Source: a virus
Lineage: Duplodnaviria; Heunggongvirae; Uroviricota; Caudoviricetes
Reading direction: 5' to 3' (one strand)
IMG/VR virus record: IMGVR_UViG_3300045988_010208
Length of the DNA stretch: 64,000 nt
Shown here: piece by piece, positions 3-11,498 of the stretch
How the letters are laid out: each line of letters opens with the position of its first letter
How positions within the stretch are numbered: the stretch's first letter is position 1
Made by a program: the position numbers and the translations under genes
The notes under the pieces: model-generated
What the model saw: the letters and a program-made list of their open reading frames with translations, nothing else
What the model was told of the DNA's origin: nothing
The model's database searches: none

Positions 3-5797
<5,795 letters not shown>

Positions 5798-5799
5798 TA

Positions 5800-6966
5800 A
5801 TGGCAGTAGGTGAAATTCAAATTAGTGCCTTGCCTCAAGCAGCCTTACCAATTGACCTTAGTGATATCTTCCATCTTAAGCAGGGTATTGAGGATAAGAG
5901 ATGCACTCTTGAGCAATTACTTGCTCCACACTCAAGCCTAAGAAATAACCCTCACGGTGTTACTAAAACACAAATTGGTTTAGATAACGTTATCAATGCT
6001 CTTCAGTTAGTTGCTGCAAATAACTTATCAGATGTTACTAATGTCACTGAGGCAAGGGCAAATCTACAGATTATGTCTTCAGAAGAGGTTAATAGCCTTG
6101 TCCAACAGCATATTAATGATAAGAGTAATCCACACAATACAACTAAAGCACAGGTTGGTTTAAGTAATGTTCAGAACTGGACAACATCCAACCTTTATAA
6201 TGAAGATGCAGATAAGTACGCTACAGCAAGAGCAGTAAATAACTTGTACAAGGCTGTTCAGGCTTCTTATCCAGTAGGTACTATCCATCTCTCTATGAAT
6301 CCTGCAAACCCTTCTACATATTTAATTTGTGGAGGTACTTGGGAGTTAGTTTCAAGAGGAAGAGCACTTGTAGGTTATGATAGTGCTTCTAGGCCAGTTG
6401 GTAGTAACTTTGGCTCAAGTAGTATTAGTTTATCTAGTAACAACCTACCATCACATAGCCATTCAATCTATCTAACTGGTGGTGGGCATACTCATGGTGC
6501 TACTATTACTATTGATGGCTTTGATTACGGCAATAAGAGCACAAACAGTTTCGATTATGGAACAAAGACCACTAATAGCACTGGTGCTCACACCCACTCA
6601 GTGAGTGGTTCAACAAATACCACAGGTAATCACACACATACTGTAGGTGGTCGTTACGGAGGTGACTCTATTGGTGGTAAACAACGTGTTCAGGTCTCAG
6701 GGACTGCTCAGGTTTCCAGTGTAGCTGGTGACCACTCACACACTATTAGCGGTTCAACAAATACCACAGGCAATCACCAACACACTGTTGCAATTGGTGC
6801 TCACACGCATACTGTTGCAATTGGTGCTCATACCCATAAAGGCACAGTAACTTTGCAGTCATCTGAGCATACTCACTCAGGTACTACAGGCACTACAGGT
6901 GCTGGTCAAGCATTTAGCGTTGAACAACCATCCTTTGTGGTTTATGTATGGCAAAGAACCGCTTAA
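5800..6966 (+). CDS. tail fiber protein with His-rich HxH repeat tip domain
   Basis: 388 aa; C-terminal region carries repeated GAHTHSVSG / GNHTHTVGG / AIGAHTHTV motifs like the metal-coordinating HxH repeats of T4-type fiber tips; C-terminal ~140 aa paralogous to that of the next gene. Confidence 0.6.
   Translation: MAVGEIQISALPQAALPIDLSDIFHLKQGIEDKRCTLEQLLAPHSSLRNNPHGVTKTQIGLDNVINALQLVAANNLSDVTNVTEARANLQIMSSEEVNSLVQQHINDKSNPHNTTKAQVGLSNVQNWTTSNLYNEDADKYATARAVNNLYKAVQASYPVGTIHLSMNPANPSTYLICGGTWELVSRGRALVGYDSASRPVGSNFGSSSISLSSNNLPSHSHSIYLTGGGHTHGATITIDGFDYGNKSTNSFDYGTKTTNSTGAHTHSVSGSTNTTGNHTHTVGGRYGGDSIGGKQRVQVSGTAQVSSVAGDHSHTISGSTNTTGNHQHTVAIGAHTHTVAIGAHTHKGTVTLQSSEHTHSGTTGTTGAGQAFSVEQPSFVVYVWQRTA
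6550..6960 (+). repeat. paralogous tail-fiber tip segment (copy 1)
   Basis: DNA and protein similarity to 9010-9365, e.g. shared GGTGCTCACACCCACTCAGTGAGTGGTTC and GGTGGTCGTTA.GG.GGTGACTCTAT.GGTGGTAAACAACGTGTTCAGGT. Confidence 0.8.
6784..6837 (+). repeat. 27-bp tandem duplication inside fiber tip coding sequence
   Basis: ACTGTTGCAATTGGTGCTCACACGCAT followed immediately by ACTGTTGCAATTGGTGCTCATACCCAT (encodes TVAIGAHTH twice). Confidence 0.8.
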
Positions 6967-7017
6967 AAAATTCTTTTACAGGGGGCTGTATAGCCCTCTT
7001 TCTAGAGGACAAAAATA

Positions 7018-9369
7018 ATGGCAGATTACAAGTTGAGTGAATTAAACTCAATCGATACAATCCGTTCAGATGACCTTCTTCATGTCAGGGTTAAAAAGAG
7101 ACCTGAAATGCTGGGTGATGAAGACCGTCGAATGACCTATCAAGATTTCTTAGCATCTTTTAAGCTTGAAAGATTTGTTCAGATTGCTGGTAGCACTATG
7201 ACGGGTGACTTAGGGATTGTTAAGTTACTTTATGGTGGTAAGGCAGTCTTTGACCCTACAGGCTCTTCTGAGATTAATATTGGGGATGTTTTAAAGACTT
7301 TTAAAATTAACGCAAATGGTCTTAAACTAACTATTGCAGATGCTTCGAGGTCAGCAACTGTTTATCATACTCTGAATAAACCAAGTCCTAATGAACTTGG
7401 GATGAGAACTAATGAAGAGAATGATGCAAGATATGCAAAACTGGCTAACTCGAATACGTTTAAAGCCAAGCAAACTATTACATCGAATGGTGAGATTTTA
7501 ACGCTAGTCACCCCTGCGGAGGCGAGTTCAGCGTACTGTGCCCTTGTAGGTAGAGACGCGAGTAATGAAAAGAATTGGGCTATTGGGAACCTAATTAGAG
7601 GCAGCTTTGATGTTCAAATCAAGAGTAGACAAGGTTCCATCCTCACTCTAGGTACAACTGTAACGATTAATAAGACCCTTGCTGTTGTTGGTCAGGTCAA
7701 ACCTTCTGACTTCTCTAACTTAGATGCTAGATACTTTACTCAGACAGTTGCTAATCAGAGATTTGCACAGTTAGCTGGCAATAACACATTTAGTGGTTCT
7801 AATATTTTCACTAATAATTTTGTTATTAAGAAGAATGCTAATGCTATTACTATTCAAAATGTAGATACAACTACGGCTTTGTATATCCAAGCAAGAAAAT
7901 CAGATGGAGCTAATAAGTGGTACATTGGCAATGACGGTGATGAGAGTATTGTAAACATCTATAACTATTTAGCAAAAACACAAATCTCACTAGGCAACAC
8001 CATTACTATGAGCAAAACAGTCCAAATTGGTGGTCAAGTTCAACCTTCTGATTGGACTAACATTGACTCTAGATATATTCCGGCAGCAACATTAAGTACA
8101 ATTGCAAGAACTAATGCACAAAATACTTTTAATGGTGTACAGAAAGTTGTTACTGATGCTGAAGCCCTAATTGTGAAAAACTATACTCAGAACAGACCAT
8201 TGTATATCCGTGGTGTGGACACTGCTAATGTGTCAAGGTGGTGGGTAGGTGTTGGTGGGGCAGATACTAATGATGTAACACTAAATAACAGTTTTTCTGG
8301 CACTCAGTTAGTTTTAGGTAACTCATCTGCAAGTATCAATAAGACATTAACCCTAGCAGGGCAGATTCAACCCTCAGATTTCTCTAACTTAGATGCCAGA
8401 TACTTTACTCAATCAGCAGCTAATCAGGAATTTATGTATGCAGGTTCCACAGGTACTGGTAGTGAAGTAGGTGATAGTGATGGCATTGCTTGGAATGCTA
8501 AAACTGGTCTGTATAATGTTACAGGTTATGGTGGAGGCTCAACACAACTTGTTTTCCAAATGTATCAGGGTGCAAGCTCTACTCCCTCTGCTCAATTAAA
8601 ATTCAACTACAGGAATGGGGGTTTTTGGTATAGGTCATCAAGGGATGGTTTTGGTTTTGAAGAGGACTTCACACAAATTTATACAGAGAAGTATAAACCA
8701 ACTCCTTCAGCTATTGGTGCATACACTAAAGCAGAGACTGACCAGAAGATTGCAGAAGCGATTAGTGACTCTACAGACCTGAATAAAATCTATCCAGTAG
8801 GGATTGTGACATGGTTTAACAGTAATGTTAACCCTAATACAGCACTCCCTGGGTTAACTTGGACGTATCTGAACAATGGTGTTGGTAGAACTATTAGAAT
8901 TGCAGCAGCAAACGGTTCAGATGTTGCTACAACTGGTGGTTCAGATTCTGTAACGTTATCTGTTGGTAACTTACCTTCACACACTCATAGCTTCTCTGCG
9001 ACTACTTCATCATTTGACTATGGTACTAAAACCACTAACACTACTGGTGCTCACACCCACTCAGTGAGTGGTTCTACTAACAACACTGGTGCTCATACAC
9101 ATACAGTTGGTGGTCGTTATGGTGGTGACTCTATCGGTGGTAAACAACGTGTTCAGGTATCTGGTACAGAACAGGTATCTAGCTCTGCTGGTGCTCACGC
9201 TCACACTGTATCTGGTACTGCTGCCTCTAACGGAAACCATGCTCACACTGTTGGTATTGGTGCTCACAGTCATACAGTTAGTGGTAACACTGGTGGTACA
9301 GGTTCTGGTTCAGCATTTAGTGTAACTAACCAGTTCTATAAGCTGATGGCTTGGGTAAGAACTGCTTAA
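7018..9369 (+). CDS. long tail fiber protein (receptor-binding) with internal repeats and HxH tip domain
   Basis: 783 aa; three internal ~40-aa repeats (..GQVKPSDFSNLDARYFTQ..); C-terminus LPSHTHSFS..GAHTHSVSG..GNHAHTVGIGAHSHTVSG paralogous to 5800-6966. Confidence 0.65.
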   Translation: MADYKLSELNSIDTIRSDDLLHVRVKKRPEMLGDEDRRMTYQDFLASFKLERFVQIAGSTMTGDLGIVKLLYGGKAVFDPTGSSEINIGDVLKTFKINANGLKLTIADASRSATVYHTLNKPSPNELGMRTNEENDARYAKLANSNTFKAKQTITSNGEILTLVTPAEASSAYCALVGRDASNEKNWAIGNLIRGSFDVQIKSRQGSILTLGTTVTINKTLAVVGQVKPSDFSNLDARYFTQTVANQRFAQLAGNNTFSGSNIFTNNFVIKKNANAITIQNVDTTTALYIQARKSDGANKWYIGNDGDESIVNIYNYLAKTQISLGNTITMSKTVQIGGQVQPSDWTNIDSRYIPAATLSTIARTNAQNTFNGVQKVVTDAEALIVKNYTQNRPLYIRGVDTANVSRWWVGVGGADTNDVTLNNSFSGTQLVLGNSSASINKTLTLAGQIQPSDFSNLDARYFTQSAANQEFMYAGSTGTGSEVGDSDGIAWNAKTGLYNVTGYGGGSTQLVFQMYQGASSTPSAQLKFNYRNGGFWYRSSRDGFGFEEDFTQIYTEKYKPTPSAIGAYTKAETDQKIAEAISDSTDLNKIYPVGIVTWFNSNVNPNTALPGLTWTYLNNGVGRTIRIAAANGSDVATTGGSDSVTLSVGNLPSHTHSFSATTSSFDYGTKTTNTTGAHTHSVSGSTNNTGAHTHTVGGRYGGDSIGGKQRVQVSGTEQVSSSAGAHAHTVSGTAASNGNHAHTVGIGAHSHTVSGNTGGTGSGSAFSVTNQFYKLMAWVRTA
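9010..9365 (+). repeat. paralogous tail-fiber tip segment (copy 2)
   Basis: See 6550-6960; about 85% identical stretches at nucleotide level. Confidence 0.8.
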
Positions 9370-9448
9370 TCCCTTATTGACTGATTGTTAAGATGGTGTT
9401 AATATTCTTTATGGGTATTCTCACCATCTTGGCTGATGAGGTGATTAA

Positions 9449-9643
9449 ATGCCTACAATCCTAGCAATTCTTCTAAAAAATCTAGGTAGTTTCTTCTGGA
9501 AACTCATTTTATCCCTTCTAAGTGAATACATGATTGAGAAAGTGTTCTTTAAGCTTGCAAGATACCTTGCGAGTAAAACAGACACACCTATTGATGATGA
9601 GTTCGTAGATAACTTAGAAAAAGCTTTTAAGGGGGAGAAATAA
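9449..9643 (+). CDS. small hydrophobic protein
   Basis: 64-aa ORF with hydrophobic N-terminal half, directly after the tail fiber gene. Confidence 0.3.
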   Translation: MPTILAILLKNLGSFFWKLILSLLSEYMIEKVFFKLARYLASKTDTPIDDEFVDNLEKAFKGEK

Positions 9644-10015
9644 ATGAAGTGGCTAGAGGAAGCTTTTAAAAATAATATTGGTGCAATTGTAGTTGGTATT
9701 TTTAGTGTTATTGGGATGTATACCACCATGCAAGTTTCGGATGGTAAACAAGAAGTGTCTATCACAACAAAGTTACAGCAGTTAGATAATTATTCCAAAA
9801 GTAATTATTCAGCTATTCGTGATTTACAGTCTGATATGAGGCTGCTTCAGCTAGGGATGGAGAACCAGAAAGTCCAGTTAGAGAATGTTAAGGGTGAGAA
9901 CGCAAAACTTACTAAGACTCTTGATAAATTCTCTGATAGTGTGAACAATCTGGCTCAATCAGTATCAGCCCTCCAAGCTATTACTGAAAAGAACACAAAG
10001 AATACTGAAAAGTAA
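9644..10015 (+). CDS. membrane-anchored coiled-coil protein
   Basis: 123 aa; one N-terminal hydrophobic helix (IGAIVVGIFSVIGMY) then heptad-like Q/L/N-rich region; followed by an intrinsic terminator. Confidence 0.4.
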   Translation: MKWLEEAFKNNIGAIVVGIFSVIGMYTTMQVSDGKQEVSITTKLQQLDNYSKSNYSAIRDLQSDMRLLQLGMENQKVQLENVKGENAKLTKTLDKFSDSVNNLAQSVSALQAITEKNTKNTEK

Positions 10016-10021
10016 AGTTTA

Positions 10022-10055
10022 AGGCTCCTTTTTACGGGAGCCTTTTTTGTTTTAT
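10022..10055. terminator. intrinsic terminator between convergent genes
   Basis: Hairpin GGCTCC-TTTTTAC-GGGAGCC followed by TTTTTTGTTTTATTT; sits between the 3' ends of 9644-10015 (+) and thyA (-). Confidence 0.7.
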
Positions 10056-10951
10056 TTACCTACTGACAAAGGTGCTTCAATCTTTCCTGCATGTTGGTAA
10101 TTGTAAATGCCACCAATAAAATCACTTGCAGTGAGATGTTTTAAGTCACTTAAAGTGTTAAGTGGGATACCAATCTCAAAAGTTGGTGCATGGAACTCTT
10201 CATTGTTCATCAGTTCATAAACCTGCTTCATATGATTCTGATAAATCTGAGTATCTCCAAAGACACCTATCAAGTACCGTGGAGTGTATCCAGTCATCTT
10301 ACAAAGAACTTCCAGAATAAAACCATAAGATGCAATATTAAACGGGAGTCCTAAAAAGGTGTCTACTGAACGCTGATACCATTGTAAGTCAACTTCACCC
10401 TCGTTAGTGATATAAATCTGAAACAGAACATGACAAGGTGCTAAAGCCATCGAGTTGGATGCAATATCTGCTGCATTCCAAGCATTAACAAGCATGTAGC
10501 GGTCTGTAATATCACCCTTCATCTTCGTTACTAAGGTCTCTAACTGGTCTACAACACAACCATTATGACCTTCAAAGTTTCTCCACTGAACCCCGTAGAT
10601 TCTCCCACCTGCGTCATCTAACCAGTCTTGTTCAGAAGAATAATTAGAGCTTAACCAGCGTTTAAAATCATCTGACCAGATAGTCCAGCGTTCTCCATCA
10701 TTTTCATCCCAAGTGCGGTAACGGAGTTCACCCAGTTTATTCTCACCATTCAGGAACCATAAAGCTTCCCCAATAACTTGCCGTGTAAACACCTGTTTAG
10801 ATGTTAAGAGCGGGAAACCAGTTCGCATATCAAAACGAAACTGAGGTGGAGCAAAAGCAGAGATAACATCTCCAGTTCGTGTAGTACGCAGTTCACCAAC
10901 GGATAAAACATGGTTCAAGATATTTTTGTAACTTGTATCTGCTTGTGACAT
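10052..10951 (-). CDS. thyA: thymidylate synthase
   Basis: 299 aa; ThyA signatures: RTGFPLLTSKQVF, EALWFLNG, active-site ALAPCHVLFQ. Confidence 0.92.
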   Translation of the reverse strand: MSQADTSYKNILNHVLSVGELRTTRTGDVISAFAPPQFRFDMRTGFPLLTSKQVFTRQVIGEALWFLNGENKLGELRYRTWDENDGERWTIWSDDFKRWLSSNYSSEQDWLDDAGGRIYGVQWRNFEGHNGCVVDQLETLVTKMKGDITDRYMLVNAWNAADIASNSMALAPCHVLFQIYITNEGEVDLQWYQRSVDTFLGLPFNIASYGFILEVLCKMTGYTPRYLIGVFGDTQIYQNHMKQVYELMNNEEFHAPTFEIGIPLNTLSDLKHLTASDFIGGIYNYQHAGKIEAPLSVGK

Positions 10952-10952
10952 A

Positions 10953-11498
10953 TCAAAAGTGTCCTTTTACTTGTGGAACATAAATTTCAAAAGTTGCTTT
11001 ACCATCCTCTGATGGTTTTGACTGTACCTTTGTAAACACACGGTTATCATACAGCTTCTCAAAGAAGTTTTCAAAAGGTAAATGCACAGTGGCCTCTTCA
11101 GTAACTTTATGGAAAACAGTATGGAACACCACACTAGCATACGGTAAAGCATTGACAAGGATACCTGCACCACCAATTACAAAGACATCTTCATCAATAG
11201 AGCTATCAAGATACTTCAAAAATGCTCCAAATGACTCTTTACTGGCTTTAGCATACATTACATCATCTTTGCCAAAGTCTATGCCTAAGTATGGTACAGA
11301 ATTTGTTAAGACGAGGTTTGCACGTTCTGGTAATGGTTTACTACCCAGAGTCTTAAAAGTCTCATTACCCATCACTACTAAATTATCTTTAGTGAGTCTC
11401 TTAAACTCTTGCATATCCTGTTTATGTCGAGGCCACGGCATACCAGTTGGAGTACCAAACTCCCCATTTTCACCACTTGCAAAGATTAATTTAATCAT
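10953..11498 (-). CDS. dihydrofolate reductase
   Basis: 181 aa; N-terminal IFASGENGEFG..MPWP....D...FK..T....VVMGNETFKTLG pattern of DHFR; adjacent to thyA as in T4 (frd-td). Confidence 0.85.
   Translation of the reverse strand: MIKLIFASGENGEFGTPTGMPWPRHKQDMQEFKRLTKDNLVVMGNETFKTLGSKPLPERANLVLTNSVPYLGIDFGKDDVMYAKASKESFGAFLKYLDSSIDEDVFVIGGAGILVNALPYASVVFHTVFHKVTEEATVHLPFENFFEKLYDNRVFTKVQSKPSEDGKATFEIYVPQVKGHF

Follow-up and report, generated by a model that had tools for sequence, protein, structure and literature searches.

Twin gp37-type tips on the two tail fibres of a Felix O1-like phage locus, and exchange of their heads in the lineage

The virus record IMGVR_UViG_3300045988_010208 (Caudoviricetes), analysed here over a stretch of 64,000 nucleotides (the window), contains two successive tail-fibre genes at positions 5800-6966 and 7018-9369 whose products end in similar, histidine-rich tips. 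Such a locus raises the question why a single phage carries nearly the same tip on two different fibres, and whether the likeness is upheld by exchange between the genes. An initial annotation, made from the window's sequence, had proposed that the duplicated tip is a substrate for homologous exchange between the two genes, or with other phages, and could drive host-range switching. We consider it very likely that the genes encode the fibres of a Felix O1-like myovirus, that both fibres have a tip of the type found in gp37 of phage T4 with almost the same head, that this head is a cassette which has been swapped and converted within the lineage, and that in the window itself the two copies are held alike by purifying selection. 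The observation in the initial annotation was thus partly confirmed, being real but overstated in its numbers, and its interpretation is supported for the lineage by comparative evidence, not for recent events in the window genome.

Two fibres with gp37-type tips

The locus belongs to the genus Felixounavirus (Felix O1-like): positions 5400-9800, used as query, are 95.3% identical in DNA over 4.4 kb to phage AN17P8. This phage, VSe102, Si3 and PMBT20 are all Felixounavirus genomes 95% identical to that interval. In the genus as a whole 257 phage records have a match to it, 49 of them over at least 80% of its length. Since the gene order agrees, the two genes can be identified as orthologues of gp76 and gp77 of Felix O1 and of gp26 and gp27 of Bas63, the short tail fibre (STF) and the long tail fibre (LTF), respectively.

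The C-terminal paralogy of the two proteins is real, with 55% amino acid identity between STF residues 157-339 and LTF residues 592-754 (BLASTP, E 2e-51). It is strongest in a core of 89 codons, from FDYGTK to IGAH.HTV, at 6550-6816 in STF and 9013-9279 in LTF. The consensus peptide given in the initial annotation occurs in both tips, and their 31-residue heads are identical at 28 positions. The DNA identity of about 85% that was claimed for 6550-6960 against 9010-9365 proved too high: it is 75% over 349 alignable columns, 76% over the 267 nucleotides of the core (BLASTN), and 81% over 195 ungapped nucleotides. The genes and the parts of their tips are as follows (HxH, two histidines separated by one residue).

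5800-6966, + strand: STF gene, 388 residues, equivalent to Felix O1 ORF76/gp76 and Bas63 gp26 (phrog_2097, tail fibre, E 3.8e-138)
6268-6453, + strand: STF collar domain, residues 157-218, beginning YPVG (Pfam Gp10_C over residues 154-270, E 8.9e-17; aligned to 2XGF and the gp10 collar)
6454-6639, + strand: STF descending needle strand, HxH at residues 219, 230, 264 and 278, FDYG repeats (aligned to the descending HxH motifs of T4 gp37)
6640-6732, + strand: STF head, residues 281-311, TVGGRYGGDSIGGKQRVQVSGTAQVSSVAGD, the largest His-free gap between HxH motifs
6733-6876, + strand: STF ascending needle strand, HxH at residues 312, 326, 335, 344 and 357
7018-9369, + strand: LTF gene, 783 residues, equivalent to Felix O1 ORF77/gp77 and Bas63 gp27 (phrog_4277 over the full length)
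8791-8979, + strand: LTF collar domain, residues 592-654 (Pfam Gp10_C, E 0.0015, below the curated cut-off; BLASTP alignment to the STF collar)
8980-9102, + strand: LTF descending needle strand, HxH at residues 655, 679 and 693
9103-9195, + strand: LTF head, residues 696-726, TVGGRYGGDSIGGKQRVQVSGTEQVSSSAGA
9196-9273, + strand: LTF ascending needle strand, HxH at residues 727, 741 and 750

The STF tip thus has nine HxH motifs (four before and five after the head) and the LTF tip six (three and three), and both end in a C-terminal strand beyond the ascending HxH strand.

Both tips match the structure of the T4 gp37 tip (2XGF): STF residues 146-359 align to its residues 18-227 (E 8.5e-26) and LTF residues 649-762 to its residues 101-218 (E 8.4e-14). 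In the STF alignment all seven HxH motifs of T4 lie opposite an HxH, which bears out the earlier suggestion that these motifs correspond to the histidines of T4-type tips. The gp10 structures 5HX2 and 2FKK also match STF (E 3e-7), the collar being common to gp10, gp12 and gp37. In the tip of T4 gp37 the HxH motifs coordinate iron. Given the homology to 2XGF and to the fibre models of Bas63, the window's own fibre proteins would be expected to form trimers with six-histidine metal sites. The STF head aligns to the tip subdomain 932-963 of T4 gp37, with Y286, G287 and G288 opposite W936, N937 and G938, three residues that are essential in T4 (PMC6957217).

These relations suggest a model in which STF and LTF are the short and long fibres of the baseplate, each a homotrimer ending in a T4 gp37-type tip. 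The chain would run down the needle below the collar, form the head and return upwards, with the histidines of the HxH motifs from all three chains turned towards the axis and binding metal. The 31 residues of the head, between the last descending and the first ascending HxH, would then be the module that contacts the receptor and, the heads being nearly identical, both fibres would most likely bind the same receptor, which we infer to be the outer core of the Salmonella lipopolysaccharide. The head behaves as a cassette, since the conserved DNA around it, coding for the HxH and FDYG motifs, supplies homology. Unrelated head types have replaced one another in the genus, the fibres of T4-like phages, P2-like phages and prophages share the head, and in the Salmonella clade it has been homogenised repeatedly between STF and LTF by two-way gene conversion over short tracts.

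Exchange of the head within and between genomes

The tips of both fibres were extracted from 24 IMG/VR loci and 21 GenBank phage records. In several of these relatives the two genes share long tracts of the same DNA. In BPS17L1 a tract of 189 nucleotides is without any difference between STF and LTF; identical tracts of 115 and 113 nucleotides are found in PMBT20 and UAB_Phi87, the latter recurring in the separately deposited UAB_69, and in Felix O1 and FO1a (also separate records) the two genes are nearly identical over nucleotides 97-195 of the core. Contiguous blocks in the state of the other gene could be delimited in both directions by means of 64 marker sites, those at which the STF and LTF copies of the window differ. 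Blocks of the STF state occur in the LTF of PMBT20 (core nucleotides 84-189), UAB_Phi87 (104-189), Felix O1 (135-189), Mushroom (165-189) and NBSal004 (45-189), and blocks of the LTF state in the STF of BPS17W1 (12-159), Si3 (108-159) and PMBT20 (93-159). The contiguity of the blocks was assessed by permutation (p<=5e-5 for most triplets, 3e-4 for one other).

The heads themselves point in the same direction. In UAB_Phi87 and PMBT20 no head is closer to that of LTF than the STF head of the same genome, and in NBSal004 the LTF head is closest to the STF alleles of other phages. Private residues are common to both copies of one genome, i.e. H/A in UAB_Phi87, H/P in PMBT20 and V/P/Y in BPS17L1. 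All exchange blocks end by about nucleotide 197 of the core; in the 3' part, which codes for the ascending strand, each gene always keeps its own sequence, and the nucleotide divergence is about 40%. Two exchange-prone tracts can therefore be delimited.

6550-6746, + strand: STF exchange-prone tract (core nucleotides 1-197), comprising the last FDYG repeat, the distal descending needle, the head and the first ascending HxH
9013-9209, + strand: LTF exchange-prone tract (core nucleotides 1-197)

The two tips are direct repeats 2.46 kb apart, so that a crossover between them would delete most of LTF, and only non-crossover conversion would be expected to be viable. It seems probable that the STF and LTF heads of the Felix O1 clade of Salmonella phages form a two-copy family, kept in step by bidirectional conversion of short tracts confined to the roughly 200 nucleotides of distal needle and head. 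A change in one fibre that adapts it to a receptor could then be copied to the other, so that the specificity of both fibre sets of the virion would shift together, and through the same homology new heads could be imported from the fibres of T4-like phages, P2-like phages and prophages encountered in the host.

Over the wider set of relatives the head varies as a unit. Each gene has its own collar and proximal needle, which are conserved from phage to phage, whereas the heads are wholly different between phage groups, with at least six unrelated head types for each fibre gene. When the STF and LTF heads are compared genome by genome, their identity has a bimodal distribution: 19 distinct genomes show 81-100%, about 21 others 12-32%. 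All 19 genomes with twin heads carry the Felix O1-type head GGRYGGDSIGGKQRVQVSGT.QVSS, and among the 41 relatives compared the presence of the same head on both fibres is restricted to Salmonella-infecting members; BPS17W1, HMD-P8 and D1-2 carry this type on STF only. A tblastn search with the head peptide returned 86 phage records, of which 80 are Salmonella phages. The sole Escherichia-labelled carrier is a phage of 168 kb, so that none of the 119 Escherichia-labelled Felixounavirus records has the head. The link of head type to host range is correlative, and conversion between copies of the same head type homogenises specificity and does not switch it.

Within the Felix O1-type head 20 of the 31 positions are invariant across 40 alleles, and four are hypervariable (core codons 35, 45, 50 and 53), with the states R/H, Q/H/P/L, S/Y/E/F and A/E/N/Q/V. 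The Q/H/P/L site lies opposite K945 of T4, beside T4's essential Gly-rich loop. The four positions, occupied in the window by R285, Q295, S300 and A303 of STF and by R700, Q710, S715 and E718 of LTF, are candidate residues for the tuning of specificity. Variants from an evolution experiment on a "gp37-like long tail fibre" (PMC6669636) were considered as further cases at a hypervariable head codon and dropped, since the changes reported, at residues 497 and 534, are located in the shaft.

Heads found outside the genus bear out the second route that had been proposed, an exchange with other phages. The peptide GAHTHTVGGRYGGDSIGGKQRVQVSGTNQVSSSAG is 100% identical in gp37 of the Tequatrovirus Salmonella phage Lv5cm, in a fibre of the Peduovirus STYP1, and in prophage fibres of E. 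coli SCPM-O-B-8794 and E. albertii NBRC 107761, all of which otherwise have a T4-type collar and C-terminus. The DNA of the heads of Lv5cm, STYP1 and the prophages shares only 83-86% identity with the closest LTF allele of Felixounavirus, and almost every difference falls on a third codon position. This combination indicates that the sharing is old and the protein strongly constrained; on the same grounds it was rejected that T4-like or P2-like phages had recently passed on the head by horizontal transfer. Conversely, the LTF head of the E. coli phage AYO145A is 83% identical in amino acids to the head of T4 gp37 (it is also found in a relative; locus at about 7528-8115). The T4-like head in the long fibres of these E. 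coli O145 Felixounaviruses would predict that they recognise receptors much as T4 gp37 does. The "ISQGDNANVSSGRVASSNSAQTH" head, carried by the LTF of other E. coli Felixounaviruses, is also present in a fibre with a T4-type collar from a metagenomic bin.

Two further observations were made on fibre tips in these comparisons. The Felix O1-type head stands out as an unusually constrained module of 35-40 residues. In addition, identical fibre-tip open reading frames (ORFs) of 384 residues, similar to lambda Stf (loci L061-L072 and L088), were met on contigs of low coverage, several of them about 48.4-48.5 kb long, in assemblies labelled as Pseudomonas, Shewanella, Leeuwenhoekiella, Chromatium, Paenibacillus, Streptomyces and others; these look like contamination of the bacterial assemblies with phage lambda control DNA.

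Purifying selection, artefacts and other explanations

The window's own copies give a different picture from that of the converted relatives. Both heads are identical to those of VSe102 and differ from each other at three of 31 residues. The synonymous divergence (dS) between STF and LTF reaches 1.06 in the head and 0.99 in its 5' flank, the ratio of nonsynonymous to synonymous divergence (dN/dS) is 0.07-0.08, and the longest identical run is 32 nucleotides. With dS saturated and dN/dS low, the likeness of the heads in the window's lineage is kept by purifying selection and not by recent conversion, and the homology open to recombination is modest.

These values (dS about 1, dN/dS about 0.08, a run of 32 nucleotides) are what would be expected if the tips derived from an old duplication followed by purifying selection alone, without any exchange between them. 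For the lineage, such an explanation is already contradicted: in the relatives, tracts of 113-189 nucleotides with zero differences stand against a background dS of about 1, the blocks in the state of the paralogue are contiguous and have differing boundaries (p<=5e-5), and private variants are common to both copies of one genome. Duplication without exchange is therefore improbable as a general account. The exchange postulated between the two fibre genes holds for the relatives, with tracts in both directions; the copies in the window show no recent exchange.

The identical tracts in the relatives could also have arisen during assembly or polishing, by mixing of reads from the two tips. This is unlikely, and we would give it only a very small chance. 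The tracts are at most 189 nucleotides long, generally shorter than or close to the read length, and are bounded by gene-specific sequence. The separately deposited pairs UAB_Phi87/UAB_69 and Felix O1/FO1a agree. Moreover, the STF of BPS17W1 has a long LTF-type block while the LTF head of the same phage differs, so that the block cannot have come from its own paralogue. Programmed diversification of the tips, by a diversity-generating retroelement or an invertase-driven shufflon, has next to nothing in its favour beyond the repeated tip-coding DNA and the hypervariable core codons 45 and 53, since the copies are direct repeats within two complete genes, the inverted repeats in 5400-9800 are only short and imperfect (at most 20 nucleotides, 81-88%) and none is significant (the best being 20 nucleotides at 85%), no reverse transcriptase or invertase is encoded among the neighbouring ORFs, and the variation is neither adenine-biased nor template-like but comes in blocks that match the paralogue. 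Promoter-like and terminator-like sites are no commoner in the same interval than in shuffled sequence.

Several points weigh against the picture of a head cassette that is swapped and converted in this lineage. In the window genome itself exchange is not demonstrated, given the saturated dS and the short longest run. The tips are repeats only 2.46 kb apart, most of the records are short-read assemblies, and the tracts were read from assembled sequence. The GenBank loci L025-L042 were picked by their match to the query tip, so that twin heads are over-represented among them; the IMG/VR set, which was not selected in this way, has twin heads in 5 of 23. The identical head also occurs in the fibres of E. 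coli and E. albertii prophages and is thus not strictly Salmonella-specific. Finally, a single-sequence AlphaFold2 model of the STF monomer (residues 140-388) was uninformative, with a mean predicted local distance difference test score (pLDDT) of 36.5 and a predicted template modelling score (pTM) of 0.17.

Felix O1-type phages are used for the typing and biocontrol of Salmonella, and their fibres set the host range. In this respect the module of about 93 nucleotides (6640-6732 in STF, 9103-9195 in LTF) would be a natural unit for the engineering or prediction of specificity, and both fibres may need to be retargeted together. A variant called in one of the tips may have its source in the other gene, through conversion or through mis-mapped reads.

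The locus and its relation to known fibres

The fibre genes and those upstream of them follow the order wedge 2, wedge 1, LTF platform, STF, LTF (489, 285, 100, 388 and 783 residues), which is that of ORF73-77 of Felix O1; position and length of STF equal those of ORF76, the order is syntenic with gp23-gp27 of Bas63, and the wider gene order around the fibres is that of Felix O1 ORF72-80. The remaining features of the locus are listed here.

3166-4635: Baseplate_J ORF in the position of wedge 2, 489 residues (Pfam Baseplate_J; synteny)
4638-5495: wedge protein 1, counterpart of Bas63 gp024, 285 residues (match to chain J of the Bas63 baseplate structure, PDB 9NDY, E 8.8e-184)
5495-5797, + strand: LTF platform protein, orthologue of Bas63 gp25, 100 residues (phmmer against PDB 9NDY chain S, gp025, E 4.3e-65, full length)
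7420-8430, + strand: three internal LTF repeats of about 110 residues (residues 135-248, 249-362 and 363-471; MAFFT, Pfam gp37_trimer)
10021-10044: terminator closing the fibre operon, after two small ORFs 3' of LTF

The domains found in LTF by Pfam are three copies of gp37_trimer, gp37_C, Phage_fiber and Gp10_C. Three internal repeats had indeed been noted in the initial annotation, at about 40 residues each, well short of their actual length. They are 31-41% identical in pairs (MAFFT), and their best-conserved motif of about 15-20 residues, GQ[VI][KQ]PSD[FW][ST]N[LI]D[AS]RY, starts at residues 225, 339 and 448; in the DNA a repeat (D4) is seen between 7655-7764 and 8324-8433, at 75%. The length of LTF is polymorphic in the relatives, with 777-783 residues versus 840-871 (loci L015, L017, L020, L022, L023, L027, L031, L036, L037 and L039). 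In the longer forms an additional stretch of about 60 residues separates the shaft repeats from the collar, which starts near residues 648-671 and not at about 590. In Si3, ST11 and EC6 the LTF gene is split in fragments, probably by sequencing frameshifts.

Directly 3' of LTF lie the small ORFs 9449-9643 (64 residues, phrog_402) and 9644-10015 (123 residues, phrog_4038, with a predicted coiled coil), the second being labelled "holin" in some records. Neither has a match to gp38 or Tfa in Pfam or PHROGs, the rest of the window not having been screened for a gp57A-like chaperone; in Lv5cm, STYP1 and T4 a chaperone gene directly follows the fibre gene at this place. Convergent with the fibre operon, on the - strand at 10052-11498, are a thymidylate synthase gene (299 residues) and an ORF of 181 residues, presumed to encode dihydrofolate reductase, as in Felix O1. 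A tRNA scan found no tRNA gene in the 64-kb window; as there are 22 in Felix O1, the cluster of these genes must lie outside the window. The fibre locus of a Felixounavirus, at about 90% identity, is also contained in the record of Staphylococcus phage SA1 (GU169904.1, 147 kb), which is probably chimeric or contaminated.

The architecture of twin tips and their variability are already known. Whichard et al. 2010 described gp76 and gp77 of Felix O1 as both T4 gp37-like at the C-terminus (PMC3185647). For Bas63, the cryo-electron microscopy study of 2025 states that each fibre ends in a gp37-like tip made up of collar, HxH needle and small head (cryo-electron microscopy and AlphaFold 3) and that the fibre tips are highly variable across the genus (PMC12609058). 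The window fibres agree with gp76/gp77 of Felix O1 and with gp26/gp27 of Bas63 (Escherichia phage JohannRWettstein) in genus, gene order, lengths and domain layout; the STF tip DNA of Felix O1 is 97% identical to that of the window, whereas Bas63 has seven HxH motifs in STF and six in LTF against nine and six here. The same head on both fibres of the Salmonella clade, or an exchange of head tracts, is not reported in the accessible parts of the Felix O1 and Bas63 papers. Conversion between STF and LTF within one genome, of which no description was found in the searchable literature, appears to be unreported and would be a modest addition.

The tip of T4 gp37 (2XGF) is alike in its collar, FDYG repeats, seven aligned HxH motifs, the reversal of the chain at a small Gly-rich head, and the C-terminal strand leading back to the collar. 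It differs in having 34 residues between the flanking HxH motifs against 31 in the window fibres, six of its residues (M946-I951) being unmatched by the window head in the MAFFT alignment. Unlike T4, the window phage bears the tip on two different fibres per virion and lacks a gp38/Tfa match in the ORFs directly downstream, and its collar and C-terminus are only distantly similar. The tail fibre protein S of phage Mu (8JU3) is matched at its residues 320-427 by LTF residues 469-579 (Pfam gp37_C, E 3.7e-23); this likeness is in the shaft and not in the tip, and Mu has a separate chaperone (U/U').

Exchange of tips as such is a known kind of mechanism, and the case described here would add one more example of mosaic tail-fibre tips, with no new mechanism. 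In the distal fibre genes of T-even phages, adhesin or tip cassettes are reportedly swapped at conserved motifs (Tetart et al. 1998), and the fibre genes of lambda (Stf), P2 (H) and Mu (S) are likewise said to be mosaic (Haggard-Ljungquist et al. 1992). As in those systems, conserved motifs coding for His- and Gly-rich sequence flank a variable receptor-binding segment that crosses phage families; unlike them, the Felix O1 clade also exchanges this segment within one genome, between paralogues, presumably as non-crossover conversion.

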